Source of the DNA: an uncultured Janthinobacterium sp.
Lineage (GTDB): Bacteria; Pseudomonadota; Gammaproteobacteria; Burkholderiales; Burkholderiaceae_D
Length of the DNA stretch: 61,658 nt
Assembly: GCA_963530105.1 (NCBI GenBank)
Contig: CAUSDR010000001.1
Location: 1 to 61,658 of the forward strand
Direction of reading: 5' to 3'
A program made the position numbers and the translations under genes. Within the stretch, counting starts at the first letter, position 1; every line of letters begins with the position of its first letter. This document shows positions 5,065 to 21,968 of the stretch, in pieces. The notes below the pieces were generated by a model. It saw nothing but the letters and a program-made list of their open reading frames with translations. It ran no database searches and was not told where the DNA came from.

Positions 5065-6381
5065 ATGCCGATTGTTCCTGCCACATTGCAAGCTTACCGT
5101 GCCAGCTTGCTGCACTTTCACGCCGATCCCGCATTCCATGAGGAAGCGCACGCCTGGCATGCGGATGGCTTGCTGATCGTTGCCGATGGAAAAGTCGTGG
5201 CGGCCGGCGATTATGCGCAACTGCTGCCGACCTTGCCGCCAGGAACGGACGTCATCGATTACAGCGGCAAGCTGATCGTGCCGGGCTTCATCGATACGCA
5301 TTTGCACTTCCCGCAGACGGAAATGATCGCCTCGCCCGCGCCCGGTTTGCTGCCGTGGCTGGAAACATACACCTTTCCCACTGAGCGCGCATTTGAGAAT
5401 CCTCAACATGCGCGCGATGTCGCCGAATTCTTCCTCGACGAACTGCTGCGCTGCGGCACCACGACGGCCATGGTGTATGGCAGCGTGCATCCGCAATCCG
5501 TCGACGCCTTCTTTGGCGCCAGCGAGGCGCGCGGCTTGCGCATGGTGGCGGGCAAGGTCATGATGGACCGCAATTGCCCCGAGTTCCTGCGCGATACGGC
5601 CGAGTCTGGCGCGCGTGACAGCGAAGAGCTGATCCGGCGCTGGCACAAGCACGGCCGTTCGCTGTATGCGATCACGCCCCGTTTCGTGCCCACTTCGACG
5701 AATGAACAGATGCACTTGGCGGGCGAACTGGCGCGCGCCTATCCGGATACGTATCTGCAGACGCATGTCTCGGAAAACGAGGACGAGTGCCGCTGGGTGC
5801 GCGAACTGCATCCGCAGGCGCGCAGCTATCTCGATGTGTACGACCAGTACGGCATGCTGCGCCCGCGCGCCATGTTTGGCCACTGCATCTGGCTTGACGA
5901 GCGCGACCGCGCGCGCATGGCGGAAACGCAATCGGCGGCAGCCATCTGCCCGACGTCCAATCTGTTTCTTGGCAGCGGGCTGTTCGATTTCGAGAAGGCT
6001 GATGCGGCGCAAGTGCTGATCTCGCTGGCTACCGACGTGGGCGGCGGCACCTCGTTCTCGATGTTGCAAACCATGAACGAAGCCTATAAAGTAGCACGCT
6101 TGAAAGGCAGCTATCTGCCCGCCTTGCGCATGTTTTACCTGGCAACCCTGGGCGCCGCGCGGGCCATGCAACTGGAGGGTGTCCTGGGCAATTTCACGGC
6201 GGGCACGGAAGCGGACTTCATCGTGCTCGACAAGAAGTCGACGCCGCTGCTGGCACGCCGCACGGCCGCTTGCCTAAGCCTCGAGGAATTGCTGTTTGCC
6301 TTTGCGTTGCTGGGCGATGACCGCGCCGTGGCCGCCACTTATTCAGGCGGACGCTGCGTGCATGCGCGCGAGCAGGGCTGA
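5065..6381 (+). CDS. guaD: Guanine deaminase (amidohydrolase fold)
   Basis: PGFIDTHLHFPQ, LLPWLETYTFPTE, AITPRF, QTHVSEN, CPTSNLFLGSG and TDVGGG motifs. Confidence 0.95.
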   Translation: MPIVPATLQAYRASLLHFHADPAFHEEAHAWHADGLLIVADGKVVAAGDYAQLLPTLPPGTDVIDYSGKLIVPGFIDTHLHFPQTEMIASPAPGLLPWLETYTFPTERAFENPQHARDVAEFFLDELLRCGTTTAMVYGSVHPQSVDAFFGASEARGLRMVAGKVMMDRNCPEFLRDTAESGARDSEELIRRWHKHGRSLYAITPRFVPTSTNEQMHLAGELARAYPDTYLQTHVSENEDECRWVRELHPQARSYLDVYDQYGMLRPRAMFGHCIWLDERDRARMAETQSAAAICPTSNLFLGSGLFDFEKADAAQVLISLATDVGGGTSFSMLQTMNEAYKVARLKGSYLPALRMFYLATLGAARAMQLEGVLGNFTAGTEADFIVLDKKSTPLLARRTAACLSLEELLFAFALLGDDRAVAATYSGGRCVHAREQG

Positions 6382-6450
6382 CCTACCCGATGTTCCACCT
6401 GATTGATCCTGTGCTACTGCCAGGGTCAATCGCTCTGATCGAGAACGCTG

Positions 6451-7965
6451 ATGCAAAAGAATTTCCCGAGCCTGGCGCTGGTCGCCGCACTTGCCGCCGC
6501 ACTGCCACTGGCTGGCACGGCCCACGCCGCCAAGGCCGATGCTACCCCGTCCGCCAATGAAGCGGCCACGGCGCGCCATTTTGCCGCCCTGGTGGCCGGT
6601 GCGCAGCCGAAGATTGCCGAACTGAGCCTGTTCTTTTCCATGATGCCCAAAGGCGGCGACTTGCACCACCATTACTCGGGCGCCATCTACGCCGAGCAAT
6701 TCCTCGACTGGGTCGATAAGGAAAACTATTGCGTCAATAAGACGACTTATCGCATCGAAAGCAACAAGGACGTCGTGGCGGCCGAGCGCGCCAAGCCGGC
6801 GGCGCAGCGCGGCTGCCTGTCGTCCACGGAAGTGTTTGCCGACGCCGGCCTGTATGCGGAATTGCTGCAGCGCTGGTCGACCAAGGATTTTTATAACCAT
6901 GGCGCCATCCAGACGCCACCGGACCGTACTTTCTTCGATACTTTCGGCTACTTCGGCCCCGTTGCGTCGACAAATACGGCCGATGGCCTGAAAACCCTGA
7001 AACAGCGCGCCATCGCGGAAAACCTGAGCTACATCGAGACGATTTTCGAGCTGTCGCCGTTCGTGCAAAACGCCCAGTTCGACCAGCAGGTGCTGGCGCC
7101 AGGCTTGCAGCCCGCTGCCTTGCAAGCCGTGCTGGCGAACTGGAGCCAAACGCTGGAGCAGGACGCCAGCTTCCAGAAAAGCATCAGCGCCTACAACGAT
7201 AACGTGAACAGCAGCAGCGCCGGCATCGATGATACCAATTTCACCATGCGCTACCAGGCGTATGTGCTGCGCTTCCTGTCGCCATCGCAAGTGTTTTCCT
7301 CGATGGCGGCGGCCTTCAAGGCGGCCAGCCTGAATCCGCTGGTGGTGGGGGTGAACATCGTGGGCCAGGAAAGCGTGAATGTTTCCATGCGCGACTACAG
7401 CCTGCACATGGAAATGTTCAAGTTCCTCAAGGCGAAATATCCAAACGTCAAGATTGCCCTGCACGCGGGCGAGCTGGCGCTGGGCATGGTGCCGCCGGAA
7501 GGCATGGCTTTCCACATCGCCGAAGCCGTCGACGTGGCCGGTGCCGACCGTATCGGCCACGGCATGGACATTGCCTACGAGCACAATGCGCTGGCCACCA
7601 TGCAGAAGATGCGCGAGCGGGGCATTCCCGTGGAAGTGAATCTGACGAGCAACGACTATATCCTCGGCATCAAGGGCCAGGCCCATCCGATCACCCTGTA
7701 CCGCAAGTATGGCGTGCCATTCGTGATTTCGACGGACGATGCGGGCGTGTCGCGCAATACCCTGTCAAATGAATACGTGCTGTTTGCCAGCCAATACAAG
7801 ACCGATTATGCGGAATTGAAAAAGCTGTCGTATAACAGCCTGCGTTATTCATTTCTGGCCGAAGCGGACAAACAGCGTTTGCTGAAAGCCCTCGATGCCC
7901 GCTTCAGCCGTTTTGAAGCATTGATCGCGAATAGCGATCGTAAAGCAAGTGTTGTAAAACCGTAA
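6451..7965 (+). CDS. Exported (signal-peptide) adenosine deaminase-family protein
   Basis: Sec signal ending ...TAHA; MPKGGDLHHHYSG, ALHAGE, RIGHG, NLTSN and STDDAG ADA motifs. Confidence 0.88.
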   Translation: MQKNFPSLALVAALAAALPLAGTAHAAKADATPSANEAATARHFAALVAGAQPKIAELSLFFSMMPKGGDLHHHYSGAIYAEQFLDWVDKENYCVNKTTYRIESNKDVVAAERAKPAAQRGCLSSTEVFADAGLYAELLQRWSTKDFYNHGAIQTPPDRTFFDTFGYFGPVASTNTADGLKTLKQRAIAENLSYIETIFELSPFVQNAQFDQQVLAPGLQPAALQAVLANWSQTLEQDASFQKSISAYNDNVNSSSAGIDDTNFTMRYQAYVLRFLSPSQVFSSMAAAFKAASLNPLVVGVNIVGQESVNVSMRDYSLHMEMFKFLKAKYPNVKIALHAGELALGMVPPEGMAFHIAEAVDVAGADRIGHGMDIAYEHNALATMQKMRERGIPVEVNLTSNDYILGIKGQAHPITLYRKYGVPFVISTDDAGVSRNTLSNEYVLFASQYKTDYAELKKLSYNSLRYSFLAEADKQRLLKALDARFSRFEALIANSDRKASVVKP

Positions 7966-7992
7966 AAGTATTTCATCTTCCTTCCGCCTGCC

Positions 7993-8017
7993 ACGCGACC
8001 GCAACTAGCGGTCGCGT
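7993..8017 (+). terminator. GC-rich hairpin after the ADA gene
   Basis: ACGCGACCGC-AACTA-GCGGTCGCGT, perfect 10-bp stem; no U-tract, so terminator function is uncertain. Confidence 0.4.
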
Positions 8018-8214
8018 AGCCTCCATTCCCTCGCAGTTACAAATTGCTATTATCATAATTTTTGTTGTGCCTTTACGACACAAAATGTGATGCGCGTAGT
8101 GCTTTCTTGCAATTATTTTCTGAAACAATTTTCAAGGCATGCCGCTCATCTATAATTTCGCCCCGATGAGGTGAGCTTGCTCGGTTGATACAAAAAATGC
8201 GGCTTCTAGCGGTG

Positions 8215-8284
8215 ATTTATACTTTTTATATATAAATTATTAAAAAAAAACGTATTTGTCAGCCTTCAGACCTTAATGCATAGT
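8215..8284 (+). promoter_or_regulatory. LysR (XapR?) box plus sigma70-like promoter of the TBDR gene (copy 1 of 3)
   Basis: ATTTATA-N9-TATAAAT, 14 nt, GTATTTGTCA; TTGTCA-17-CATAGT; same architecture at 21969-22040(-) and 25345-25416(+). Confidence 0.8.
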
Positions 8285-8497
8285 TGGACGGCGAAGAATT
8301 GAATAAGTCATTTTTGATATCGCTTTTGTGACAATTCACGGTGTCTAGCGGCGCCTGTCATATAGCGGTCATATTCATGTAACGGTTTTGACATATTCGA
8401 TCTTTATACTGCCGTGTCTAGTTGGATAGTTTCCGTATTTCACCACTATAAGCAAGTAAATATGCTTGCAATTAACAACACACTCTAGGGGGTTTAC

Positions 8498-10870
8498 ATG
8501 CAGTTAGTTCAACAACCAAAATTGCGACTAAGTATGATCGCGTTGGCATGCCAATTGGCATGCGTCGGGATCTCTACAGCGCACGCGCAAACCGCGGGCG
8601 AAGCTGCAAGCAAGCCTACTGAAGTCGTCATTACCGCGAAAAAGACGGGTATGGGCTTGATGGTGACGGAAGATGCACCAAAAGCGCGCAGCACGATTAC
8701 GGCTGAAGAGCTGGAAAAGCAGCGCCCGACGGGCAATGCATATGAAGCCCTGGAAATGTTGCCAGCGGTGAATAGCTACAACTACGATGCAACGGGCCTG
8801 TTCGGCGGCGGCATGACACTGCGCGGCTTCAACTCCGACCAGATCGGCGCCACCATCAACGGCGTGCCAGTGAATGACTCCGGCAGTTTCGCCATCTACC
8901 CACAAGAATATGTTGACCAGGAAAATACCTGCTCGCAAACCGTTACCCAGGGTTCCACTGACGCCGACTCGCCGCAAGTGGGCGCGACCGGCGGTAACTT
9001 TGGCATCAACACCTGCAATCCGGAAGACAAGCATCGTCTGCGCATGATGCAGACCATCGGTCAGCTGAACATGAAGAAAACCTTCGTGCGCGTCGATACC
9101 GGCCTGTTCTCGGACAAGCGCACCAAGATGTTCGTCTCCGCTTCGCATGCCGAAGCCGACAAATGGAAAGGCAAGGGCGGCGCCAAGCGCGACCATATCG
9201 ATGCCGGCATCAACTACGACTGGGATCGCTTCAACTACATTCACGCCACCTTGCTGTACAACGAGGCGATGAACAACAACATCAATAACCTGACCTTGGC
9301 TGAAATCAACAAGAACGGTTATTACTTCGACTACGCTGATACCTTCAAGGGCCATCTGACCCCGGTCAAAGGCGTTGCGCAAGTTGAAACGACGCAGTCG
9401 CCAGCCTTCTACAAACTGGGCATCAACCCATTCAAGAACGCGATCGCCTCGGCCACGGCCAAGTTCCGCCTGAACGAGAACCTGGACTTGAAAGTCTTGC
9501 CATACATCTGGTACGGCTATGGTAACGGCGGCGTGCAACAACGCGCCCAGTCGGAAAAGGGTTTCTATGACGCAACCACCGGCCTGCGCAACGGCACGGT
9601 GGACTTGAACGGCGACGGCGATACCCTCGACACCGTCCTGGTCGCCAACGCCAGCGTGACGAAGACGTTCCGCCCGGGCGTGACGGCTTCGCTGAACTGG
9701 ACCTCGGGTAACCACGATGTACTGGGCGGCTTCTGGTACGAGCGCGCGCGCCATCAGCAAACCGGCCCGATGCTGGCGCTGAGCAATGATGGTATCTCGC
9801 AAGATCCTTGGCTGCAAAACGGCCAGATCCTGCGCCCGGACGGCACGCCAGCGCAAAGCCGTAACTGGATGTCGATTTCGACCGCTTACCAGTTCTTCTT
9901 GCAAGACACGATCAGCCTGAATGACGACAAGCTGAAGATCAACATCGGCGTGCGCAGCCCGAACGTGAAGCGTGACTTCACCAACTACGGCGACGAAAAC
10001 AACAACGTCAAGCCGTACAACCTGATCAAGAAGTACAACACGCTGCTGCCGCAACTGGGCGCGCGTTACCGCCTGACCAACGATGACCAGTTGTTCATTT
10101 CCGTTGCCAAGAACGTCAAGGCACCACCTAACTTCGTGTTCGGCAACATCGGCACCAGCGTAAAAGTGGTCAATGGCGTCGCCAACTTCGTCGGTGACGT
10201 GAAACAGGAATCGTCGTGGAATACCGATATCGGCTATCGCCACCAGGATGACAACTTCATCGCGTCGGTAACGGCTTTCATGGTCGATTTCAAGGACCGT
10301 CAGGCAACCACCTTCGATCCGATCACGCAAGCGAGCAGCTACACCAACGTGGGCCGCGTCAGCAACAAGGGTCTGGAATTTGAAATCGGCAATACGCCGA
10401 TCAACGGCTGGGCGATGTACGGTTCGCTGGGTTTCAATAACAGCAAGATCAAGGACGACATGCTGTCGGCCACGAACGTGTACCTTCCAACCGCTGGCAA
10501 GGAAATGATCAACACGCCGAAGAAGAAAGCCGGCTTGTCGGTCGAGTACCAGAACGGTTCGTTCTGGGCCCGCGTCAAGGCGCGTGCCACCGGCCAGCAG
10601 CAAGCTTCGATGGTCAATGATGAAACGGCACCAGGCTACACCACCTTCGGTCTCGATGGCGGCTACACCTTTGCCAACTTCGGTTACATCAAGCGTCCTA
10701 AGCTGACGTTTAACCTGAGCAACATCACGGACAAGCAGTACCGCAATCCGTCCTCGACCACCGTCAAGAACACCAAGCCGATTCCTGGCGTGACGACGTC
10801 GGTGGATACCCAGCGTTACTACCTGGGCGCACCACGCTTCGTATCGGTCACCCTGTCGATCGATATCTAA
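8498..10870 (+). CDS. TonB-dependent outer-membrane receptor
   Basis: Signal peptide (..TAHA), TonB box EVVITA, plug motif LRGF...INGVPVND, C-terminal NLSNITDKQY...GAPRFVSVTLSIDI. Confidence 0.93.
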   Translation: MQLVQQPKLRLSMIALACQLACVGISTAHAQTAGEAASKPTEVVITAKKTGMGLMVTEDAPKARSTITAEELEKQRPTGNAYEALEMLPAVNSYNYDATGLFGGGMTLRGFNSDQIGATINGVPVNDSGSFAIYPQEYVDQENTCSQTVTQGSTDADSPQVGATGGNFGINTCNPEDKHRLRMMQTIGQLNMKKTFVRVDTGLFSDKRTKMFVSASHAEADKWKGKGGAKRDHIDAGINYDWDRFNYIHATLLYNEAMNNNINNLTLAEINKNGYYFDYADTFKGHLTPVKGVAQVETTQSPAFYKLGINPFKNAIASATAKFRLNENLDLKVLPYIWYGYGNGGVQQRAQSEKGFYDATTGLRNGTVDLNGDGDTLDTVLVANASVTKTFRPGVTASLNWTSGNHDVLGGFWYERARHQQTGPMLALSNDGISQDPWLQNGQILRPDGTPAQSRNWMSISTAYQFFLQDTISLNDDKLKINIGVRSPNVKRDFTNYGDENNNVKPYNLIKKYNTLLPQLGARYRLTNDDQLFISVAKNVKAPPNFVFGNIGTSVKVVNGVANFVGDVKQESSWNTDIGYRHQDDNFIASVTAFMVDFKDRQATTFDPITQASSYTNVGRVSNKGLEFEIGNTPINGWAMYGSLGFNNSKIKDDMLSATNVYLPTAGKEMINTPKKKAGLSVEYQNGSFWARVKARATGQQQASMVNDETAPGYTTFGLDGGYTFANFGYIKRPKLTFNLSNITDKQYRNPSSTTVKNTKPIPGVTTSVDTQRYYLGAPRFVSVTLSIDI

Positions 10871-10917
10871 ACGGCGCTTCGCGCAGCCTGCAGGCCAGGC
10901 TGCGCGCGATGTGTCAC

Positions 10918-10945
10918 AACGGGCCTTTGGGCCCGTTTTTCTTTT
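10918..10945 (+). terminator. Rho-independent terminator after the TBDR
   Basis: AACGGGCC-TTTG-GGCCCGTT followed by TTTCTTTT; a second hairpin lies at 10881-10905. Confidence 0.75.
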
Positions 10946-11028
10946 GTGCCGGCAGACCGCGGCCGGACTTTGTTTAACCTGTTTGCGCAATGCCGCTATC
11001 CCGGCAGTTGCGCTATGCTGCGAAGCTT

Positions 11029-12714
11029 ATGAAAACACTGCCCTTATCCCTGATCACAGTGGCCCTCGCCGCCGCCATGTCCGGTTGCGCCACCCATCCC
11101 GTGGCCCCCGTCGACATCAACCTGGTCGCCATGAATGACTTCCACGGCAACCTCGACCGCAGCAAATTTACCTACACCAGCGTCACCGACCCGCTCCGCA
11201 AGACGGTGCAGGCGGGCGGCATCGATACCCTGTCCGGCGCATTGAAAGCGTGGCGCGAGGAAGATGCGCAACTGATTTTTGTCGGCAATGGCGACCTGGT
11301 CGGCGGCAGTCCCGCCATGTCGGCCATGTGGGCTGACGAACCGAGCATCGTGGCCCTGAACATGCTGGGCATGAAGGCCAGTTCCGTGGGCAACCATGAA
11401 TTCGACCAGGGCAAGGCAGAATTGCTGCGCCAGCAGCGCGGCGGCTGCGAGTCGTCGCGCGCCGACAAGGCATGCAAGTTCAGCCCCGACTTCAAGGGCG
11501 CCAGCTATGCCTACATGGCGGCCAACGTGATCGACACGCAGACGGGCAAGCCGCTGCTGCCGGCCTACCGCATCGAAGAGGCGCATGGCGTCAAGGTGGG
11601 CTTGATCGGTGCCGTGCTGAAAGATACGCCCTCCGTGGTCACGGCGGCTGGCGTTGCCGGCCTGCGGTTCGGCGATGAAGCGGACGCCATCAACGCCACC
11701 TTGCCGCAATTGCGCGCACAGGGCGTGGGCGTGTTCGTCGTGCTGCTCCACCAGGGCGGCGAGACCAAGGAAGCCGTCGACCAGGCGGATTGCAGCGGCC
11801 TCAAGGGAGAAGTGGTCGATGTGGTGAAGCGTCTCGACCCGGCCATCCAGCTGGTCATCAGCGGCCATTCGCACCAGGGTTATCTGTGCCGTGTCGATGG
11901 CCGCCTGGTGACGCAGGCGCAAATGGGCGGACATATGTTGACCCGCATCAAGCTCAAGGTCGATCCCGTCAGGAATGCGCTGATCGATGCCACCGCGCAC
12001 AACGTCGTCATGCTGCCAGGCCAGTATGCGCCGGACCCGGCCGTGGCAGCCTACCTGGACTCCGTGAAACAGCGCAGCGAGGTGGAATTGTCGCGTCCCG
12101 TGGCCGTCATCGCCGTGCCCAGCGTGGGCCGCAGCACCAAGGGTGGCGGCGCTTCCGCGCTGGGCGACCTGGTGGCCGACAGCACCCTGTTCGGCGCGCG
12201 CGCCGCTGGGGCGCAAATCGGCCTGATGAACAATGGCGGCATCCGCAAGGACCTGGAAGCGGGCGCCGGCCTGATGACGAACGTGGGCCAGAACCAGGCG
12301 GTTGTGCCGTTTGGAAATACCTTGATCGTCGTCAGCCTGTCCGGTGCGCAAATCCGCAGCCTGCTGGAACAGCAATGGCCGGGCGCCGAAGCGGAAGAGG
12401 GTAATTTGCTGCAAGTGTCCGAAGGTTTTGCTTATCGCTGGGATAGCACGCAGCCGCAGGGCCAGCGCGTCGTGCCTGGCAGCATCATGCTGAACGGTGC
12501 CGCGATTGAGGATGATCAACAATACCGTGTCGCCGCCAACAGTTTTCTCGCTGGCGGCGGCGACCGCTTCACCGTGCTGGCGGCTGGCACGCGCCGGCTC
12601 GACACGGGCGTACGCGACATCGACGCCTTCAGCAATTACCTGATCGACCGCGCGCGCGCCGGCAAGCCGGCCGGCAGCGCCACGGCGGCAGGGCGCATCG
12701 TGCGCGTCAAATAA
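11029..12714 (+). CDS. UshA-like bifunctional metallophosphoesterase / 5'-nucleotidase lipoprotein
   Basis: Lipobox MSGC; NDFHG, GD, GNHEFD and SGHSH motifs; C-terminal 5'-nucleotidase domain (NNGGIR, PFGN, FLAGGGD). Confidence 0.9.
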   Translation: MKTLPLSLITVALAAAMSGCATHPVAPVDINLVAMNDFHGNLDRSKFTYTSVTDPLRKTVQAGGIDTLSGALKAWREEDAQLIFVGNGDLVGGSPAMSAMWADEPSIVALNMLGMKASSVGNHEFDQGKAELLRQQRGGCESSRADKACKFSPDFKGASYAYMAANVIDTQTGKPLLPAYRIEEAHGVKVGLIGAVLKDTPSVVTAAGVAGLRFGDEADAINATLPQLRAQGVGVFVVLLHQGGETKEAVDQADCSGLKGEVVDVVKRLDPAIQLVISGHSHQGYLCRVDGRLVTQAQMGGHMLTRIKLKVDPVRNALIDATAHNVVMLPGQYAPDPAVAAYLDSVKQRSEVELSRPVAVIAVPSVGRSTKGGGASALGDLVADSTLFGARAAGAQIGLMNNGGIRKDLEAGAGLMTNVGQNQAVVPFGNTLIVVSLSGAQIRSLLEQQWPGAEAEEGNLLQVSEGFAYRWDSTQPQGQRVVPGSIMLNGAAIEDDQQYRVAANSFLAGGGDRFTVLAAGTRRLDTGVRDIDAFSNYLIDRARAGKPAGSATAAGRIVRVK

Positions 12715-12732
12715 TATTTATAAGGAAAAAGC

Positions 12733-13962
12733 ATGCGTCGTTTATTTGTTTCCCTGCTCGTCTCTGGCCTGTTCGCGGGCAGCGCCCACGCCGACTTCAC
12801 GATTCCCGGCTACGAGCTGGTGCACACCTCGCCCGTGGAAACCACCTTGACCAATCCCGACCTGCGCGAGCCTGTTGCCGTGTGGACGGAGCTGTTCGAC
12901 GGGGCCAAAAAAGAAATCGTCATCGCCCAGTTCTACGCCGTCAGCAAACCGGGCACGGCCTTTGAAAAGGTCCTGGCCAGCCTGACGGCCGCCGGCCAGC
13001 GCGGCGTGAAGATCCGCTTCCTGCTGGACCAGAAGGGCGTGGGCTTGTCGGATGCGGCGACCATCGCGCAGATCAAGGCCATTCCGAATCTGGACTTGCG
13101 CCTCATCGACTTCAATAAAATCACGGGCAACGGCATCGTGCATGCGAAATACCTGGCCGTCGATGGCCAGGTGGCGTACATCGGCAGCCAGAATTTCGAC
13201 TGGCGCTCGTTCGAACACATCCATGAGACAGGCTTGAAGATCACGGAGCCCGCCATGGTCAGCCAGGTGCAAGCCATCTTTGAACAGGATTGGCAGGCGC
13301 AGGCGCTGACGTCGCAAGGCAGCCGCGCCACGGTGCTCAACAACAAGGTGGTGCCGGCCAATTACGCGCAAAACGCCTTCCTGCTGGCCAGCCCGAATGC
13401 CTACAACCCGGCTGGCGTGGGCGACTCGGAAACGGGCTTGCCAGCCTTGCTGGCGCAAGCGCAAAGCGAAGTGCGCATCCAGCTGCTCGATTATGCGCCC
13501 CTGTCGTACGGCCCGAACCGCACGCGGCCGTACTACGCCGTGATCGACAACGCCGTGCGCGCGGCGGCCCAGCGGGGCGTGAAGATCAAGCTGATGGTGT
13601 CCGCCTGGAACACGGAAGCGCCCGCCATTGCCTATCTGAAAAGCCTGGCCTTGGTGCCGAACGTGGAAATCCGCATCGTCACCTTGCCCACCGCTTCGAC
13701 GGGATTCATCCCGTTCGCGCGCGTGATCCACAGCAAGACCATGAGCATCGACGGCAAGCTGACCTGGGTTGGCACCAGCAATTGGGCCGGCGGCTATTTT
13801 GACCTGTCGCGCAACCTGGAAGTGGTGCTGCGCAACGACGCCATGGCGCAGCGCATCGCCGCCTTGCACGAACAGACGTGGAGCTCGGCGTACGCGCAGC
13901 CGATCGATATCAACAAGCAATATCCAAAACCGGCGAAAGCTGCGCCGCAAGGCAAGGAGTAA
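12733..13962 (+). CDS. Exported phospholipase D-superfamily protein, PLD3/PLD4/vaccinia K4-like (probable nuclease)
   Basis: Signal peptide (..SAHA); two HKD motifs, HAKYLAVD..GSQNFDWRS and HSKTMSID..GTSNW; no transmembrane anchor. Confidence 0.85.
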   Translation: MRRLFVSLLVSGLFAGSAHADFTIPGYELVHTSPVETTLTNPDLREPVAVWTELFDGAKKEIVIAQFYAVSKPGTAFEKVLASLTAAGQRGVKIRFLLDQKGVGLSDAATIAQIKAIPNLDLRLIDFNKITGNGIVHAKYLAVDGQVAYIGSQNFDWRSFEHIHETGLKITEPAMVSQVQAIFEQDWQAQALTSQGSRATVLNNKVVPANYAQNAFLLASPNAYNPAGVGDSETGLPALLAQAQSEVRIQLLDYAPLSYGPNRTRPYYAVIDNAVRAAAQRGVKIKLMVSAWNTEAPAIAYLKSLALVPNVEIRIVTLPTASTGFIPFARVIHSKTMSIDGKLTWVGTSNWAGGYFDLSRNLEVVLRNDAMAQRIAALHEQTWSSAYAQPIDINKQYPKPAKAAPQGKE

Positions 13963-13964
13963 CG

Positions 13965-15038
13965 ATGAACATGCAAAAATTAGTGGGCGTGCTGGCGCTG
14001 GGCGCCGCATTTGCTTCCGGCAATGTGCTAGCCTGGGGCAGTGATGGCCACCGCGCCGTGGGCGCTATCGCCGATCAATTGCTCAAGGGGAGCGCCGCCG
14101 AAGCCTACATCGGCAAGTTGCTGTTGCCGGGCGAAAGCCTGGAAAAGATCGCCAACTGGCCCGATTGCGTGAAAGGCACGTATTGCGGTCCGCAATCGCC
14201 GGAAATGTTGACCTATGTGGCAGCGAACCCCAAGCATGGCGAATACCATTACACGAACGTGCCGTTCCAGAACGCGCATTACCACGACCATGGCGTGGGC
14301 ACGGCCGACGACGATATCGTGCAGACGCTGAAACAGGCGATTCTGGTGTTGCAGGGCAAGGCTGACGCGGCCAGCAATCCGCACGGCTTCAGCCAGCGCG
14401 AAGCCTTGATCCTGATCACGCACCTGGTCGGCGATATCCACCAGCCGCTGCATGTGGGCAATGCCTTCGTCGCCAAGGATGGCCAGTTCTTCGTGCCCGC
14501 CACGCAGGCGCAGATCGATGACGTCACCATTTTCAATGCGCGCGGCGGCAATGACTTGCTGCTCGACGATGCGAAGATGACGGCCTTGTCCGACGCCGTG
14601 ATTCCCGCGCCGCCGCCAGCCGAAGCAGGCGCCAAGCCGGCCAGCGCGTATCCGAAGTCGCCCACCAAGCCCCTGCATTCCTACTGGGATACAACCGTGG
14701 TCGACTACGCCATGCGCCGCCTGAGCACGCGCACGCCGCAGCAGTTTGCCCGCACCGTGATCGCCAGCGCGCCGGACGTGGACCGTAACAGCGGCGACCC
14801 CGCCACCTGGCCGTATCAATGGGCCGACGCCTCGCTGGCGGCATCGAAGATTGCCTTCACGGATGTGGTGGCGGGACCGGCTACCCGCCAAACCAGCCGC
14901 AAGGGCGATGCATACAATGTGTGGGCGCTGACGGTGCCGGACAATTATCCCGTGCCCAGTTCGGCGCTGGCGAAGCAGCAGCTGATCGCCGGTGGCTATC
15001 ACCTGGCTGCCGTGCTGCAGGCGATCTGGCCGCAATAA
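13965..15038 (+). CDS. Exported S1/P1 nuclease
   Basis: Signal peptide followed by mature N-terminal WGSDGH; ANWPD, HLVGDIHQPLH, GGN and LHSYWD Zn motifs; starts 2 nt after the PLD stop. Confidence 0.93.
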   Translation: MNMQKLVGVLALGAAFASGNVLAWGSDGHRAVGAIADQLLKGSAAEAYIGKLLLPGESLEKIANWPDCVKGTYCGPQSPEMLTYVAANPKHGEYHYTNVPFQNAHYHDHGVGTADDDIVQTLKQAILVLQGKADAASNPHGFSQREALILITHLVGDIHQPLHVGNAFVAKDGQFFVPATQAQIDDVTIFNARGGNDLLLDDAKMTALSDAVIPAPPPAEAGAKPASAYPKSPTKPLHSYWDTTVVDYAMRRLSTRTPQQFARTVIASAPDVDRNSGDPATWPYQWADASLAASKIAFTDVVAGPATRQTSRKGDAYNVWALTVPDNYPVPSSALAKQQLIAGGYHLAAVLQAIWPQ

Positions 15039-15050
15039 TCGTCTCGCTTG

Positions 15051-15076
15051 AAAGCGGCCCGTGGGCCGCTTTTTTT
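15051..15076 (+). terminator. Rho-independent terminator
   Basis: AAAGCGGCC-CGTG-GGCCGCTTTTTTT between convergent genes. Confidence 0.8.
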
Positions 15077-15839
15077 ACGCCAGGGTGATGGCGATACCCA
15101 TCTCGCGGTATGGGGCCAGCAGCGCATTGTCCACCTCGCGGTGCGCGACGATATCGTTGACCTGGCTCAAAGGCGCGATTTGGAACGGCGAGGCCGTGTT
15201 GAACTTTTCCGGCGAGGCGAGCACCACGGTGCGGGCGGATGCCTCGCTCAGCGCGCGCTTGACGCAGGCTTCCTCGTAATCTCCCGTGGTAATGCCTGTC
15301 TGCGGATGCAGGCTGGCCACGCCCATGAAATACAGGTCGGCACGGATGCGGCCGATGGCTGCCACGGTGTCGGCGCCGACGCCGACGATGGAGTGTTTAT
15401 ACAGGCGCCCGCCCAGCATCAGCACCTCGATCAGCGGATGGTTCACCAGTTCGACGGCAATCGACGGGCTGTGCGTGACCACGGTGGCGCGCAGGTCCGG
15501 TGGCAGCTGGCGCGCCAGCTGCACGGCCGTGGTGCCGCCGTCGATGAACACGACTTGCCCCGCTTCTATCATGGCCGCCGCGGCGCGGCCAATGGCCGGC
15601 TTGATGTCGGACGAGATCTGTTCGCGCCCCGCAAACGCCACCAGCGCAGGCGAGCGCGGCAGCAGGGGCAGGGCGCCGCCATGCACGCGCTCCAAGCGGC
15701 CTTCCCTGGCCAGTTCGCGCAGGTCGCGGCGTATCGTGTCTTCCGACAGGCCCAGGCTGTCGCTGACGGCCCTGGCGACAATCTGTCCCTCGCGCTGGAG
15801 CAAGTCCAGCAAGTACTGCTTGCGTTGATGTGTTAGCAT
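15075..15839 (-). CDS. DeoR/GlpR-family transcriptional regulator
   Basis: MLTHQRK..., SEDTIRRDLREL, RVHGGA and FIDGGTT motifs; real start is internal to the 417-aa ORF. Confidence 0.92.
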   Translation of the reverse strand: MLTHQRKQYLLDLLQREGQIVARAVSDSLGLSEDTIRRDLRELAREGRLERVHGGALPLLPRSPALVAFAGREQISSDIKPAIGRAAAAMIEAGQVVFIDGGTTAVQLARQLPPDLRATVVTHSPSIAVELVNHPLIEVLMLGGRLYKHSIVGVGADTVAAIGRIRADLYFMGVASLHPQTGITTGDYEEACVKRALSEASARTVVLASPEKFNTASPFQIAPLSQVNDIVAHREVDNALLAPYREMGIAITLA

Positions 15840-15923
15840 GATTTTTCTTGTATTTTCTTGATATTGCACGAGTTTGCATGATAAAGTCGATGAAAGCAAG
15901 CATATGCAAACACAGGAGACACC

Positions 15924-16892
15924 ATGCGCGAAGAAACGACAAAACAGGAACGGGTACGCATCGCTGCGGTGCAGACACTGTCGCACGACTGGTACCTGCT
16001 GCAAAAGACCACGTTCGACTACCTGCGCCGCGACGGCCAGTGGCAGACGCAGACGCGGGAAACCTATGACCGCGGCGATGGCGCCACCATCCTGCTCTAC
16101 AACAAGGCGCGGCGCACGGTGATCCTGATCCGCCAGTTCCGCTTCCCCACCTACCGCGACGGCCATGACGGTTTCCTGATCGAGGCGGCGGCCGGCTTGC
16201 TGGAACAAGCCAGCGCGGAGCAGCGCATCCGCGCCGAGGTGGAAGAAGAAACGGGCTACGCCGTGGGCGATGTGCACAAGGTGTTCGAAGCTTTCATGAG
16301 TCCCGGCTCGGTGACGGAGCGTTTGCATTTCTTTGTCGCCGAATACGATCCTTCAAGCCGCATCGGCGACGGCGGCGGCCTGGCCCACGAGGGCGAAGAT
16401 ATCGAAGTGCTGGAATTGCCGCTGGAACAGGCCATGCGCATGGTGGACGATGGCCGCATCTGCGATGGCAAGACCATTATGTTGCTGCAGCATGCGCAGT
16501 TGCACTTGATGCCGCCAGCGCAAGAGACGCGGCGGGGCATGCAGATTCTGGTGGCCGGCCCTTACCGTTCCGGCACGGGCGACGATCCCGCCCGGATGGC
16601 GGCGAATGTGGCGGCCATGCAAGCCGTCTGCCTGCCTTTGTATGCCAAGGGGCACATGCCGGTGCTCGGTGAATGGCTGGCCTTGCCCATGCTGGCGCTG
16701 GCCGGTTCCACGCAAGTGGGCGATCTTGTGTACGAAGAATTGTTCCACGCGCACGCGACGCGCCTGCTCAGCCATTGCGACGCCGTGCTGCGCATCGGCG
16801 GTGCGTCAGCGGGGGCGGACCAGATGGTGGCGGTGGCGCGCAGCCTGGGGCTGGCGGTGTTTTTCTCGCCGGACGAGATTACCCAGGCGTAA
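15924..16892 (+). CDS. NudK/YffH-like NUDIX hydrolase fused to a C-terminal DUF4406/NDT-like domain
   Basis: RETYDRGDGA, Nudix box GLLE..IRAEVEEETGY, MSPGSVTE, GEDIEV, DGKT; extra domain from M16539 (ILVAGPY...CDAVLRIGGASAGAD). Confidence 0.85.
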   Translation: MREETTKQERVRIAAVQTLSHDWYLLQKTTFDYLRRDGQWQTQTRETYDRGDGATILLYNKARRTVILIRQFRFPTYRDGHDGFLIEAAAGLLEQASAEQRIRAEVEEETGYAVGDVHKVFEAFMSPGSVTERLHFFVAEYDPSSRIGDGGGLAHEGEDIEVLELPLEQAMRMVDDGRICDGKTIMLLQHAQLHLMPPAQETRRGMQILVAGPYRSGTGDDPARMAANVAAMQAVCLPLYAKGHMPVLGEWLALPMLALAGSTQVGDLVYEELFHAHATRLLSHCDAVLRIGGASAGADQMVAVARSLGLAVFFSPDEITQA

Positions 16893-16996: not shown

Positions 16997-17968
16997 CTAG
17001 CGCGACTTGACGAACGGGATACCGATGGCTTTTGGCGCGATGGATTTCGCCATCAAGCCCGCCAGCACGATCACGGTCACCACGTATGGCACCATCTGGA
17101 TCAGCGAACCGGGGATGCGGCCCACGACCGGCAAGTCCACGCCTTCGATCTGGATCTGGATGGCGGCGAAAAAGCCGAACATCAGGCAGCCGAGGAAGGT
17201 ATAGACGGGGCGCCAGTTGCCGAAGACCATGGCCGTCAAGGCCAGGTAGCCGGCGCCGGCCGACATGTCGCGCAGGAAGAAGCCGCTTTGCACGATGGCC
17301 AGGTAGGCGCCCGAGAACGAGCACAGGATGCCGGCCACCAGCATGGCCATGTAGCGCGTCGCTTCCACGCTCACGCCGGCCGAGTCGGCCGCATGCGGAT
17401 TTTCGCCGCAGGCGCGCAGGCGCAGGCCGAAGCGCGTGTGGTACAGCAGCCAGTGCACGAGCGGAATCAGGAGGAACGCCACGTAGACGAGGATGGAATG
17501 GCCGCCGATCAGGTGGGCATACACCCAGCCGATGAAGGGAATGTGTTCCACGTACTGCGTGCCCGGCAAGACGACGTCAAACAGGCGCGCCGAACCGAGG
17601 TCGGGCGTGCGACCGCCTTGCTGGAAGAAGAATTGCGCCAGCACAAACGTCAAGCCGCTCATGGCGATGTTGATCGCCATGCCAGCCACCAGCTGGTTGC
17701 CTTTTTGCGTGATGCTGACATAGGCCTGCAGCAGGGCCAGGGCAACGCACACGAGCATGCCGGCGGCCATGCCGTAATACGGGTTTTGCGTCGTGTAGGC
17801 CACGGCGGCGGAAGCGAAGGCGCTGGCCAGGATCTTGCCTTCCAGGCCAATGTCGATCATGCCGCTGCGTTCGGCAAACAGGCCGGCCATGGCGGCGAAG
17901 ATCAGGACCGGCGCATTGCGCACGGTCGATACCAAGATGCTGGCGAAATGAAAGTCGTCGAGTGTCAT
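16997..17968 (-). CDS. Nucleoside ABC transporter permease (NupC-like)
   Basis: ERSGMIDIGLEG, RLRACGENP..ADSAG, GYLALTAMVFGNW; hydrophobic. Confidence 0.9.
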   Translation of the reverse strand: MTLDDFHFASILVSTVRNAPVLIFAAMAGLFAERSGMIDIGLEGKILASAFASAAVAYTTQNPYYGMAAGMLVCVALALLQAYVSITQKGNQLVAGMAINIAMSGLTFVLAQFFFQQGGRTPDLGSARLFDVVLPGTQYVEHIPFIGWVYAHLIGGHSILVYVAFLLIPLVHWLLYHTRFGLRLRACGENPHAADSAGVSVEATRYMAMLVAGILCSFSGAYLAIVQSGFFLRDMSAGAGYLALTAMVFGNWRPVYTFLGCLMFGFFAAIQIQIEGVDLPVVGRIPGSLIQMVPYVVTVIVLAGLMAKSIAPKAIGIPFVKSR

Positions 17969-17971
17969 GGT

Positions 17972-19051
17972 TTAGCCTTTGGTGCGCTTGAGCAGGGCGG
18001 AAATGGCCGGTGCGTAGAAGTTTTCCATCGCGCCGCAGAACAGGATGATCAAGCCCTGGATAAAGATGAAAGTTTCCGTCGGGATATTCGGTTTTTCCAG
18101 CGACAAGTCGAAGCCGCCCTGGATCAGCGCGCCGAACAGCACGGCCGACAGGAAGATGCCGACCGGATGCTGGCGGCCCATCAGGGCGATGGCGATGCCG
18201 ATGAAGCCGGCGCCGCCGACGAAGTTCAGCGACAGGTAATGCGTCGAGCCCATGATGGAATTGACGGAACCGAGGCCCGCCAGCGCGCCGGAAATCAGCA
18301 TGACGATGATGATCATCTTGCTGATCGACACGCCCGCATAGTGGGCCGCGTGCTTGTTCAAGCCCGTGGCGCGCAGCTTGAAGCCCCACGACGAGCGCCA
18401 CACCATCACGCCGTAGACCACCAGCGCGGCAATTGCCAACAGGAAACTGATGTTCAGCGGCGTGTCGCCCAGCGACGGGAACCAGGTGGACAGGCGCGGC
18501 ATTTCGCCGCTTTCCGCGAAGACGCGGCTGGCCGTGTTCTGCTCGCCTGGCGGAATCAGGTATTTGACGATCACGAAGTTCATCAGGCTGGCGGCGATGA
18601 AGTTGAACATGATGGTGGTGACGACGATATGGCTGCCGCGCTTGGCTTGCAGGTAGCCGGGCAAAAAGCCCCACAGCGCGCCGAACAGGGCCGCGCCGAT
18701 CATGGCCGCCGGAATCAAGAGCCAGGCGGGCAGGGTCTGGTCGAAGGCCAGCATGGCCACCGTCAGGCCCAGGCCGCCGATATACATCTGGCCTTCGGAA
18801 CCGATATTGAACAGGCCGGCCTGCATCGCCACCGAGACCGACAGGCCCGTGAAGATGAAGGTGCTGGCGTAGAACAGGGTGTAGCTCAGGCCTTCCGGAT
18901 TGAGGATGGCGCTGTTGACGAGGATGCCCAGCGATTCGGCCGGATCTTCGCCCAGCATATAAATCACCAGGGCTGCGACCAGCATGGCCGACAGCAGGTT
19001 TAACATGGGCATGACAAAGGCTGTCGCCCAGCGTGGCAAGTCGTTATTCAT
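17972..19051 (-). CDS. Nucleoside ABC transporter permease (NupB-like)
   Basis: GLFNIGSEGQ, LRATGLN..AHYAG, GFIGIAIALMG; hydrophobic. Confidence 0.9.
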   Translation of the reverse strand: MNNDLPRWATAFVMPMLNLLSAMLVAALVIYMLGEDPAESLGILVNSAILNPEGLSYTLFYASTFIFTGLSVSVAMQAGLFNIGSEGQMYIGGLGLTVAMLAFDQTLPAWLLIPAAMIGAALFGALWGFLPGYLQAKRGSHIVVTTIMFNFIAASLMNFVIVKYLIPPGEQNTASRVFAESGEMPRLSTWFPSLGDTPLNISFLLAIAALVVYGVMVWRSSWGFKLRATGLNKHAAHYAGVSISKMIIIVMLISGALAGLGSVNSIMGSTHYLSLNFVGGAGFIGIAIALMGRQHPVGIFLSAVLFGALIQGGFDLSLEKPNIPTETFIFIQGLIILFCGAMENFYAPAISALLKRTKG

Positions 19052-20601
19052 GATTTATGCATTCCCCCCATCAGCAGACCGATGCGGGTGGTATCGAATT
19101 CTTCAATTTTCAGTTCGCCGGTGATGCGTCCACCGCACATGACGAGAATGCGGTCGGCCAGCGCCCGCACTTCTTCCAGTTCGACCGACACCAGCAGGAT
19201 CGCCACGCCTGCGTCGCGCAGGGCCAGCAATTGCGTATGGATGCTTTCGATGGTGCCGATGTCGACGCCGCGCGTGGGCTGGCCCACCAGCATCAGTTTC
19301 GGCTGCGCCAGCACTTCGCGCGCGATCACTACCTTTTGCTGGTTACCGCCAGACAACAATCCGATGCGCAGGTCCGGATTGGCCGGGCGCACATCGAAGG
19401 TCTTCAGCAGTTCCGCGCAGCGCGCGCCGATGGCCTTGAAGTTGAACAGGCCCCAGCGGTTCTTCAGGCGGTCCTGGTAACCGAGGATGGTGTTCTGCAT
19501 GACGGAGAAATTCTTCACCACGCCATCGCGCAAGCGGTCTTCCGGGATGTGGGCGATGCCCAGTTCGCGGAACGCCAGCGGCAAGCCGTCGGCATCGTGG
19601 CGCTTGGCAAACGGCAAGTCCTTGTCCAGGAAGCGCAGCGTGCCGGACGTCGGCAAACGCATGCCCGAGAGAATTTCCAGCAGCTCGCTCTGGCCATTGC
19701 CCGAAACCCCCGCGATGGCGACGATCTCGCCGGCGCGCAGATTGAAACCGATATCGGCCAGCAATTTGACTTGCTGCTCGTCAGCCAGTTGCAAACCATC
19801 CACTTCCAGCACCGTGGCGCCCGGATTGTACGGTGCGCGCGGCAAGTGGCTCTGGATGGGGCGGCCGACCATCATGTTGGCCAGTTCCTCTTTCGAGGTG
19901 CCGGCCGTCGCCACGGCGCCCACCACCGTGCCGCCGCGCATGACGGTGACGTTGTCGGTGATTTCCAGGATCTCTTGCAGTTTGTGCGTGATCAAGATGA
20001 TGGTCTTGCCCTGTTCCTTGAACAGGCGCAGGATTTCAAACAGCGATGCCGTTTCCTGTGCCGTCAGCACGGCCGTCGGCTCGTCGAGGATCAGGATGTT
20101 GGCGCTGCGGTAAATCTGCTTGAGGATTTCCACGCGCTGCTGCGCGCCGACGGACAAGTCTTCGATCTTCGCCAGCGGGTCGACGTCGAGGCGGTAGCGC
20201 GCGCAAATTTCGCGCAGCTGGGCTTCCGCCTCGGCACGATGGCTGGCCAAACGAAAGCCGCCTTCCGTGCCCAGCATGATATTGTCGAGGACGGTGAAGT
20301 TCTCGACCAGCATGAAATGCTGGTGCACCATGCCAATGCCGAGGTTGATCGCCTCCTGGCTGTTGCGGATAGGCTGTACTTTTCCGTCGAGCAGGATTTC
20401 TCCGCCGTCGGCACGGTAGTATCCGTACAGGATGCTCATCAAGGTCGACTTGCCGGCGCCGTTTTCCCCCACCAGGCCATGGATACTGCCCTTGGCGATG
20501 GAGAAGCTGACGTCGGCGTTCGCCTTCACATGTCCAAATTGCTTGGAAATGCTGCGAAATTCTACTGCTGGCTGCATAGGTTCATAACTGGATAGTTTCA
20601 T
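19048..20601 (-). CDS. Nucleoside ABC transporter ATPase (tandem-domain, NupA-like)
   Basis: GENGAGKST, LILDEPT, LSGGNQQK and QPTRGVD motifs; alternative start at 20577. Confidence 0.93.
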   Translation of the reverse strand: MKLSSYEPMQPAVEFRSISKQFGHVKANADVSFSIAKGSIHGLVGENGAGKSTLMSILYGYYRADGGEILLDGKVQPIRNSQEAINLGIGMVHQHFMLVENFTVLDNIMLGTEGGFRLASHRAEAEAQLREICARYRLDVDPLAKIEDLSVGAQQRVEILKQIYRSANILILDEPTAVLTAQETASLFEILRLFKEQGKTIILITHKLQEILEITDNVTVMRGGTVVGAVATAGTSKEELANMMVGRPIQSHLPRAPYNPGATVLEVDGLQLADEQQVKLLADIGFNLRAGEIVAIAGVSGNGQSELLEILSGMRLPTSGTLRFLDKDLPFAKRHDADGLPLAFRELGIAHIPEDRLRDGVVKNFSVMQNTILGYQDRLKNRWGLFNFKAIGARCAELLKTFDVRPANPDLRIGLLSGGNQQKVVIAREVLAQPKLMLVGQPTRGVDIGTIESIHTQLLALRDAGVAILLVSVELEEVRALADRILVMCGGRITGELKIEEFDTTRIGLLMGGMHKS

Positions 20602-20658
20602 GGAAACGCGCCGCGCGGGGACTGGCCCCGGCGGCGCGCTAAAAGATACGGAGAAAAA

Positions 20659-21654: not shown

Positions 21655-21968
21655 GAATTGGCTCCTGGAAGATCGATATTGTATATTTTTTATAGGTGAA
21701 ACATATAATTTGGGGCCGATTTAGCCTGTTTTTCATGCACGAGGTGATGGTTCCTTATCAACATTGCACCGTATTGCACAAGATCATGCACAAGATCATT
21801 GCTGACCTTGTATGCTTTTGTGTCTACAGTGTGATGCTCATGCAACAGTTGAGCCCCGTCTCTTTTATAGTTACAACATCGAATGGGGCGGCCGGAGCGG
21901 GCAGGGATGCGCCGTCGTCAGGACGGGCAAGGCAAGCACGGGACCGGCGCCGCGATGGGCGTCCGAAT

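Follow-up and report, generated by a model that had tools for sequence, protein, structure and literature searches.

In soil and water, much phosphorus, nitrogen and carbon is stored in extracellular DNA and RNA, and Oxalobacteraceae respond quickly to microbial necromass (PMC11843093), but how nucleic-acid fragments cross the outer membrane of Proteobacteria is unsettled. The closest described system is ddbABCDEF, a DNA-utilisation locus of gut Bacteroidales which resembles a polysaccharide utilisation locus (PUL) and was established genetically and biochemically in PNAS in 2025 (PMC12478041; here and below, statements about cited papers refer to the portions available to us). It brings together a SusC-type transporter, a lid protein (DdbD, DUF5689) and three nucleases, and its authors propose a PUL-like order of events: cleavage outside the cell, import, then periplasmic cleavage (PMC12478041). 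Here we describe a locus at positions 8498-15038 of a Janthinobacterium contig (CAUSDR010000001.1; we call the whole analysed stretch, 1-61658, the window), where the gene for a TonB-dependent receptor (TBDR) is followed by genes for a 5'-nucleotidase, an enzyme of the phospholipase D (PLD) superfamily resembling PLD3/PLD4, and an S1/P1 nuclease. We hold, with a confidence only a little above even, that this locus is a nucleic-acid scavenging front end which feeds the surrounding 60-kb island of nucleoside and nucleobase catabolism.

The ribose utilisation systems of Bacteroidetes are likewise PUL-type loci for nutrients derived from nucleic acids but, unlike the locus here, they target ribose and nucleosides and use SusC/D and other enzymes (bioRxiv 10.1101/574913). 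When phosphate is scarce, Vibrio cholerae uses Xds, Dns, UshA and CpdB to obtain phosphate and nucleosides from extracellular DNA and nucleotides (PMC4714964). This couples secreted nucleases with periplasmic nucleotidases, as we envisage for the locus here; however, the accessible portion of that paper mentions no dedicated TonB-dependent transporter, PLD3-like enzyme or S1/P1 enzyme (PMC4714964). In the mammalian lysosome, nucleic acids are first attacked by DNase II or RNase T2, after which PLD3/PLD4 and lastly acid phosphatases continue their degradation (PMC12749308).

Like ddb, the Janthinobacterium locus combines a TonB-dependent transporter with nucleases, and its output would pass into nucleobase and nucleoside metabolism. 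Unlike ddb, it belongs to another phylum and has a PLD3-like HKD enzyme, an S1/P1 nuclease and a UshA-type nucleotidase; the available text on ddb mentions no phospholipase D. The two were compared by description, the locus here being known from its genes alone. No SusD-like or DdbD-like lid lipoprotein was found: there is no gene between the TBDR (8498-10870) and the 5'-nucleotidase (11029), the 530 bp upstream of the TBDR hold no open reading frame (ORF) of at least 80 aa, and the neighbours are enzymes only. The locus would work like a PUL or ddb but does not belong with them, as it has no SusD- or DdbD-type partner. Since ddb is already published, a nucleic-acid locus built on a TonB-dependent transporter is no longer a new idea. 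An earlier reading of this DNA, made from the letters alone (the sequence-only reading), had put the system forward as a candidate undescribed one, which ddb tempers for the category (PMC12478041) but which may stand for this proteobacterial gene set: we found no published description of it, of the TBDR-ExbB-PLD module discussed below, or of a role for bacterial PLD3-like enzymes, in a literature search that took in few subscription journals.

All four genes lie on the forward strand, and each product carries an export signal, judged by eye from the translations. The TBDR (790 aa) has Plug (1.2e-12) and TonB_dep_Rec_b-barrel (2.8e-36) domains and a signal peptide ending between STAHA and QT. 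The 5'-nucleotidase, a member of the UshA/CpdB superfamily, is a lipoprotein (lipobox AAMSG-C) encoded at 11029-12714 with Metallophos and 5_nucleotid_C (9.6e-36) domains; its ORF opens at 10990, and 11029 is the start conserved among relatives. After 18 nt (stop to ATG) comes the PLD3-like gene (12733-13962; 409 aa), whose product has two PLDc_2 stretches, a PLDc_3 match and a signal peptide ending between GSAHA and DF. The S1/P1 gene follows after 2 nt (13965-15038) and encodes a 357-aa precursor that scores 98.1 bits against the S1-P1_nuclease model (cut-off 29.5), with cleavage expected between GNVLA and WGSDGH. Upstream on the same strand is an exported adenosine-deaminase (ADA)-like protein of 504 aa (6451-7965; Pfam A_deaminase 1.2e-24; signal peptide ending between GTAHA and AK), for which the aden_deam and ADGF-related NCBIfam matches fall under their cut-offs. 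The four co-oriented genes with export signals, the two short spacings and the exported ADA had all been claimed in the sequence-only reading, and Pfam and the translations bear it out on each. Its GTG start at 13878 for the S1/P1 gene is unlikely, the ATG at 13965 giving a signal peptide that ends before Trp. The scavenging genes of Vibrio cholerae are scattered, not clustered.

Among proteins of solved structure, the PLD3-like enzyme is nearest to SpPLD of Serratia plymuthica (PDB 7E0M; E 1.8e-152, residues 19-401), and the next PDB relatives are the 5'-3' exonucleases PLD3 and PLD4 (3e-35 to 1e-31) and the poxvirus nicking-joining enzyme. A family profile built from 53 diverse members matches PLD3 over its full length (E 2.6e-82, positions 29-394), poxvirus K4 at 3.8e-74 and PLD4 at 5e-72, whereas true Streptomyces phospholipases D are matched at about 1e-11 with partial coverage. 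The HKD residues (H137, K139, D144 and N154; H333, K335, D340 and N350) are invariant in 53/53 sequences. We mapped the counterparts of PLD3 Tyr126 and Tyr411 by hand from the alignment: Y68 is Tyr in 51/53 and F328 is Phe or Tyr in 52/53. In PLD3 these two tyrosines hold the 5'-OH terminal nucleotide, and both PLD3 and PLD4 release 3'-nucleoside monophosphates (3'-NMPs) from 5'-OH substrates (PMC12749308). The N-terminal transmembrane anchor of PLD3/PLD4 is not seen in the bacterial protein, which has a short, cleavable, signal-peptide-like N-terminus; it is therefore a homologue but not an orthologue in the cell-biological sense. The structure paper on SpPLD, in the part available, reports no activity; it describes loops like those of nucleases and a positively charged patch that would suit acyl chains poorly, and raises the question of whether SpPLD is a nuclease (PMC8004604). 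SpPLD, the nearest solved relative, has thus been studied by structure only (PMC8004604).

The resemblance to the lysosomal pathway is accordingly threefold: a full-length PLD3/PLD4 homologue with conserved catalytic and 5'-OH pocket residues, its pairing with enzymes which may be able to dephosphorylate 3'-NMPs, and one bacterial relative strung together with DNase II and an acid phosphatase. It differs from lysosomal PLD3/PLD4 in having a cleavable signal peptide, not a membrane anchor, and its compartment would be the periplasm or the medium.

When the S1/P1 protein is aligned to SmNuc1 (8QJL), W24 corresponds to mature W1, the signal peptide ending just before it, and the motifs GH, a conserved D, HY.N, HLVGDIHQPxH and LHSxWD are identical. 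The protein has the mature N-terminal Trp and the His/Asp zinc ligands of the family, by the list of nine ligands for P1 nuclease. The gene is single-copy in the genome. SmNuc1 has very high 3'-nucleotidase activity (PMC11705217), so the 2-nt junction between the PLD3-like and S1/P1 genes would make biochemical sense, one enzyme resembling releasers of 3'-NMPs and the other a fast 3'-nucleotidase. The S1/P1 protein is also about 90 aa over the canonical length (357 aa against 254-277 aa for solved members), and an Ala/Pro-rich insertion (14553-14666) interrupts its Pfam match, which covers model positions 1-137 in one part and 148-256 in the other. Two close relatives from the same order (G438 and G317) have this divergent form too, without the same neighbourhood.

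The 5'-nucleotidase has the two-domain UshA-type architecture but reaches only 130 bits against the UshA equivalog model NF007109 (cut-off 600). Its best NCBIfam matches are models for Gram-positive surface 5'-nucleotidases and CpdB-type multifunctional enzymes, all sub-cut-off. The protein is a superfamily member, and its candidate substrates are 5'-nucleotides on the one hand and 2',3'-cyclic or 3'-nucleotides on the other.

An orthologue of the PLD3-like gene is present in 22/24 other Janthinobacterium genomes, both misses being 82% complete, and Janthinobacterium accounts for all of the 120 best protein matches listed. It was found in 0/16 genomes representing 16 other families of the order and, at E<=1e-40, in 4/399 other scored genomes of the class, so its distribution is patchy. 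A search of representatives gave 372 PLD3-like clusters at E<=1e-30. To see what accompanies it, we took the 80 best PLD loci of a collection of species representatives with 10-kb flanks, identifying neighbours by tblastn and Pfam, and treated a locus as assessable if it had at least 4.5 kb upstream (n=71). A same-strand gene for a TonB-dependent transporter lies upstream of the PLD gene in 65/71 assessable loci.

These loci take several forms. In 28, from Janthinobacterium, Massilia, Duganella, Pseudoduganella, Rugamonas and Telluria, the order is ADA, Oar-like transporter, 5'-nucleotidase, PLD, S1/P1 (in 2/28 a bacteriocin-type ABC exporter sits between the transporter and the 5'-nucleotidase), and in 14 more from the same group of genera a classic TBDR takes the place of the Oar-like protein. 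Collimonas and Glaciimonas have TonB, TBDR, ExbB, 5'-nucleotidase and PLD (4 loci; gaps of 7-84 nt in locus L060), while Herbaspirillum and some Collimonas have TBDR, ExbB and PLD with or without TonB in front (8 loci). The last form, a divergent PhoD gene followed by TBDR, ExbB and PLD, is found in 10 loci plus one cut short, from Pseudomonas and from Symbiopectobacterium, the latter without a PhoD match. Among the class-level matches, one genome repeats the Pseudomonas pattern, and one with a PLD of 32% identity has a TBDR and ExbB gene, separated from PLD by other sequence, beside a class B acid phosphatase. The second PLD copy of genome G093 and the locus of the fourth class-level genome have nothing relevant nearby. 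The conserved core is the transporter and the PLD-like enzyme, a pairing which recurs with at least three distinct kinds of transporter.

The string with DNase II mentioned above comes from G093, a low-GC, 2.2-Mb gammaproteobacterial genome: at about 7954-16509 (-) of locus L116 (G093:C9), genes for a class B acid phosphatase, DNase II, a short-chain dehydrogenase (SDR), a Dyp/PFL-like fusion, the PLD3-like enzyme and LtrA lie on one strand, a set that resembles the lysosomal enzymes for DNA degradation.

The TBDR of the window is of the classic type, with an N-terminal Plug and a 22-strand C-terminal barrel, and has no NCBIfam equivalog and no close PDB relative. All 23 PLD-bearing Janthinobacterium genomes have the transporter slot filled, 4 with a classic TBDR and 19 with an Oar-like protein, and none with both. 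The classic type is found by PLD in the genome of the window and, at 96%, 61% and 60% identity, in three others. The Oar-like proteins are 1140-1150 aa long, have CarboxypepD_reg and OMP_b-brl_4 domains and are 68-100% identical to the reference; their gene is on the PLD contig in 18/19 genomes. Transporter alleles are 59-61% or 68-82% identical, against 81-98% for flanking genes; where the transporter is 59% identical or replaced, the genes around it are 81-95% identical. The transporter is thus the component of the locus that evolves fast and can be exchanged. Because the flanking genes and the regulatory module described next stay in place while the transporter diverges or is replaced, both types can be argued to serve one function. 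The divergence in the slot could reflect either repeated replacement of the transporter gene or diversifying selection on a surface protein. In the two loci with an inserted exporter, L079 (Massilia sp. SR12) and L085 (a Pseudoduganella metagenome-assembled genome, MAG), an insert of about 5 kb between the Oar-like transporter and the 5'-nucleotidase encodes a C39-peptidase ABC exporter, an HlyD-type protein and a RimK-like ATP-grasp protein, which resembles a bacteriocin export system.

The link to nucleoside metabolism comes from regulatory DNA. Upstream of the TBDR is a promoter/operator (8215-8284, +) with a palindrome (8215-8237), a -35-like TTGTCA (8256-8261) and a -10-like CATAGT (8279-8284). 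It contains a 47-nt module, ATTTATA-N9-TATAAAT-N14-GTATTTGYCA, with TGCATAGT 15-16 nt downstream, so the spacing of -35 and -10 varies by 1 nt among copies. The copies lie upstream of the TBDR (8215-8261, +), of bmp, which belongs to the nucleoside ABC transporter (21994-22040, -), and of the xapA-deoB-deoC-aldehyde dehydrogenase-deoA operon (25345-25391, +). In the whole 5.9-Mb genome the module has 4 matches at <=3 mismatches, of which 3 are exact and in the window, and the reversed control has 0. The palindrome alone has 4 matches in the window at <=2 mismatches (3 exact), where 0.00 are expected. The sequence-only reading had noted that the TBDR promoter resembles those of the nucleoside ABC and xapA-deo operons, and the resemblance turns out to be stronger than it claimed. 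In loci of type A (in which an ADA-like gene is conserved 5' of the transporter), the module precedes the transporter, of either type, in 38/44, compared with 0/23 loci of the ExbB type.

The candidate binder of the palindrome is a LysR-family regulator encoded beside these promoters (22047-22950, -), which scores 318 bits against NCBIfam NF007439 (PRK09986; cut-off 290), a model that we take to represent XapR. Its true start is near 22950, since the model match begins at ORF residue 62. The dyad ATTTATA-N9-TATAAAT carries a T-N11-A core, and we infer that the LysR protein binds it, and that a single nucleoside-responsive regulon would take in the transporter of the outer membrane together with the ABC importer and the phosphorylase/deo operon.

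Phosphate may be a second signal. Between the shared promoter and the TBDR start is a direct repeat, CTGTCATATAGCGGTCAT (8355-8372, +), with 1 mismatch to CTGTCAT-N4-CTGTCAT, which we assume to be the Pho-box consensus; it is the sole match in the window at <=1 mismatch, against 0.01 expected. In related loci (1.52 Mb), 13/19 matches to this pattern at <=2 mismatches, from 11 loci, are in the same leader position. No convincing Pho box was found at <=3 mismatches upstream of the TBDR-ExbB-PLD loci of Collimonas, Herbaspirillum and Pseudomonas. An Oxalobacteraceae MAG (L070) has the perfect consensus, CTGTCATGCGGCTGTCAT, at 17328-17345 (-), between the shared module and bmp, so in some relatives the nucleoside ABC operon may also respond to phosphate.

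The fourth genomic copy of the module (2 mismatches) is on contig C241 (locus L114) at 417-463 (-), upstream of a response-regulator gene that the end of the contig truncates. Next to it lie an ORF of PEP-CTERM-like type and the C-terminal portion of a protein of the Exo_endo_phos family, possibly a secreted nuclease. The leaders of operons driven by the module are long, at about 215 nt (TBDR) and about 315 nt (bmp) (regions 7966-8497, 21655-21993 and 25392-25550); when the window was scanned with Rfam for riboswitches in these leaders, 0 matches reached the gathering thresholds. Immediately 5' of bmp (21688-21710) there is a second, degenerate dyad, TTTTATA-N9-TATAATT.

Gene identities, export signals, shared regulatory DNA and the transporter-PLD synteny were observed directly; the enzymatic activities, the compartment of the enzymes, their co-expression with the transporter and its substrate are what we deduce from them. 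In the mechanism that we propose, the outer-membrane TonB-dependent transporter would be expressed from the promoter common to the nucleoside ABC importer and the xapA-deo operon, probably controlled by the XapR-like LysR activator with PhoB as a probable second input, and a separately transcribed three-gene operon would supply the exported enzymes. The PLD3-like enzyme would most likely act as a 5'-to-3' exonuclease or phosphodiesterase on single-stranded oligonucleotides with a 5'-OH, yielding 3'-NMPs. The S1/P1 nuclease would cut RNA and single-stranded DNA to 5'-NMPs and also dephosphorylate 3'-NMPs, and the lipoprotein 5'-nucleotidase would dephosphorylate 5'-NMPs. Every route would end in nucleoside and inorganic phosphate. 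The exported deaminase would convert adenosine to inosine, and nucleosides would enter through the BMP ABC system, to be catabolised by the products of neighbouring genes. The sequence-only reading had already named the genes, set out how their chemistries complement one another and tied them to the uptake and catabolism of nucleosides; Pfam, homology and the shared module lend support to all three. Its further proposal, that oligonucleotides are imported and then digested in the periplasm, is a conjecture, and import of nucleosides or nucleotides following digestion outside the cell would suit the regulation just as well.

What the transporter carries is the least certain part. Oligonucleotides or nucleotides are perhaps the best candidates, though we would not give them an even chance; nucleosides are a somewhat less probable choice, and some other substrate is possible but unlikely. 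Oligonucleotides and nucleotides are favoured by the embedding of PLD in Ton-system strings of other genera and by the adjacency of the transporter to nucleases with plain signal peptides, and porins are too small for oligonucleotides.

A broader reading is also suggested by these loci, which we put forward tentatively and with less confidence than the scavenging function itself. The transporter and a periplasmic PLD3-like 5'-3' exonuclease might be the conserved core of an undescribed system for importing and digesting oligonucleotides, which would have a wide though patchy spread among Proteobacteria (Oxalobacteraceae, Pseudomonas, Symbiopectobacterium and one or more distant families). The system might then be a bacterial counterpart of the lysosomal pathway of DNase II, PLD3/4 and acid phosphatase, with swappable transporter families and with add-ons that differ by lineage: a UshA-like 5'-nucleotidase, S1/P1, PhoD, PhoX, PhoA, class B acid phosphatase or DNase II. 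If the scavenging reading is right, bacterial PLD3-like enzymes would gain a first physiological role. It would also give a role to bacterial S1/P1 nucleases, on which a 2024 paper finds no definite answers (PMC11705217). Nucleic-acid fragments would join the substrates of proteobacterial TonB-dependent transporters, and two unrelated transporter families, interchangeable in one slot, would offer a natural experiment on transporter specificity.

Several points weigh against nucleic-acid scavenging as we have proposed it. We know of no activity for any bacterial member of the PLD3-like clade, SpPLD having only been crystallised, and a role in lipid synthesis has also been assigned to PLD3 and PLD4. 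One paper, in which PLD3 is also mentioned, reports that a luminal PLD of Dictyostelium attacks the membranes of bacteria (PMC12242099). No transporter is near the PLD gene in 6/71 loci: in Shewanella, PhoA adjoins PLD; in an Oxalobacteraceae MAG, PhoX is four genes upstream; and in Pelomonas, Roseateles, Paludibacterium and Chromobacterium nothing informative flanks the PLD gene. Because related loci descend from common ancestors, the counts make the support look more independent than it is. PhoD, PhoX and PhoA, the neighbours outside the one Oxalobacteraceae clade with the full gene set, are general phosphatases which would fit any phosphodiester. The S1/P1 nuclease is not part of the recurring unit. 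S1/P1 nucleases occur in 51/400 other genomes of the class, and a TBDR, 5'-nucleotidase or PLD gene was found within 7 kb of them in 0/20 loci sampled from different families, so the four-gene set is a lineage-specific elaboration of one Oxalobacteraceae clade. The neighbourhood survey that the sequence-only reading had suggested for the four genes thus upholds the linkage of transporter and PLD but not that of S1/P1 beyond this clade.

Transcription is a further difficulty. A strong intrinsic terminator-like hairpin with an 8-bp stem and T-run follows the TBDR (10918-10947, +), an equivalent one follows the transporter gene in 41/44 type A loci, and the shared module is absent 5' of the 5'-nucleotidase and its operon in a pattern scan of the genome and related loci. 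Therefore the transporter and the three enzymes are two transcription units and not one operon. In place of a conserved promoter/operator, the region 5' of the 5'-nucleotidase has merely a loose GTAAC..GTTTC stretch and a TACAAT or GCTATG -10-like element. In four sets of raw RNA reads that carry this species label, 0 reads fell on 6300-16000, which has no bearing on operon structure. The promoter that ties the transporter to nucleoside uptake, moreover, fits nucleoside import as well as oligonucleotide import.

This last point leads to the alternative which survives best, although we judge it unlikely: secreted or surface enzymes would complete digestion outside the cell, and the TonB-dependent transporter would be a high-affinity route for nucleosides or NMPs, in place of a missing Tsx. 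No Tsx channel was found in the genome, which is 98.96% complete, and the genome encodes other candidate secreted nucleases (Endonuclease_NS on contig C132 and the Exo_endo_phos ORF on C241). The regulatory layout is as this explanation would have it, with the transporter's promoter/operator shared with the nucleoside ABC and xapA-deo operons rather than the enzyme operon, and the terminator uncoupling transporter from enzymes. However, nucleosides are small enough to pass through general porins. In Collimonas, Herbaspirillum and Pseudomonas, PLD is part of a TonB-TBDR-ExbB string and has no nucleoside genes in its vicinity, an arrangement that links the transporter with what PLD acts on or releases and not with nucleosides. 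The Ala at +2 after the lipobox of the 5'-nucleotidase suggests, by the sorting rule of E. coli, an outer-membrane lipoprotein, which fits the periplasmic face.

Nucleic-acid scavenging also has to be weighed against scavenging of phosphodiesters in general as a source of phosphate. Here PLD would be a phospholipase or a phosphodiesterase of broad specificity, the transporter would supply it with lipid head groups, glycerophosphodiesters or compounds of that kind, and the nucleic-acid flavour of the Janthinobacterium locus would be secondary. PLD orthologues beside PhoD in Pseudomonas, PhoX in the Oxalobacteraceae MAG and PhoA in Shewanella are in keeping with this, as are the Pho-box-like sites in the transporter leader and the name phospholipase, under which its depositors placed SpPLD. 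In Burkholderia glumae, phosphate limitation strongly induces a PLD-like protein, which may or may not belong to this family (PMC13700237). We nevertheless consider the explanation improbable: the family profile is far nearer to the PLD3/PLD4/K4 nucleases than to lipid PLDs, the residues of the 5'-nucleotide pocket are conserved, SpPLD is without acyl-chain-binding features, and in two independent lineages a nuclease gene is close to PLD (that for S1/P1 here, that for DNase II in G093).

It is very improbable that the outer-membrane protein instead exports the nucleases to the medium, for which the TonB-dependent transporter Oar and the protease PopC of Myxococcus provide a precedent (PMC6434023) and the Oar-like protein in the slot of 19/23 Janthinobacterium genomes an argument. 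The window and 3 other Janthinobacterium have a classic TBDR there, as do the Collimonas, Herbaspirillum and Pseudomonas loci, and the shared promoter module would co-regulate the transporter with importers. We know of no export precedent for the classic TBDR type. Mere juxtaposition without a functional link, in a region that gathers genes of nucleotide metabolism and where transporter and enzymes form separate transcription units, is just as hard to credit, given a pairing that recurs with at least three transporter kinds, also in genomes without the catabolic island, and a slot filled in 23/23 PLD-bearing Janthinobacterium.

Downstream of the locus, a terminator-like hairpin with a T-run follows the S1/P1 gene (15050-15078, +; seen by eye and unlisted in the terminator scan). 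The gene for a DeoR/GlpR-family regulator (15075-15839, -) runs towards the enzyme operon and away from a NudK-like NUDIX gene (15924-16892, +), and many type A loci retain this pair. The BMP/PnrA-type nucleoside ABC transporter, with two permeases, an ATPase and a binding protein, is encoded at 16997-21654 (-). The window as a whole is a nucleoside/nucleobase catabolic supercluster, with a G+C of about 63%. Besides these genes, the island holds xdhABC, a guanine-deaminase-like amidohydrolase, the LysR regulator, psuG/psuK, the xapA-deoB-deoC-aldehyde dehydrogenase-deoA operon, cdd, a reductive pyrimidine pathway with a RutR-like TetR regulator, a PuuD-type urate oxidase and M20 amidohydrolases. 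Horizontal transfer of the TBDR from a low-G+C source was considered and rejected, as its G+C at third codon positions is 0.76 against 0.76-0.84 in its neighbours; the dip in G+C at the TBDR is due to amino-acid composition and a 40%-GC intergenic region. The aldehyde dehydrogenase between deoC and deoA (28671-31052) is 793 aa long, and its Aldedh domain stops at about residue 484, with some 300 residues beyond.

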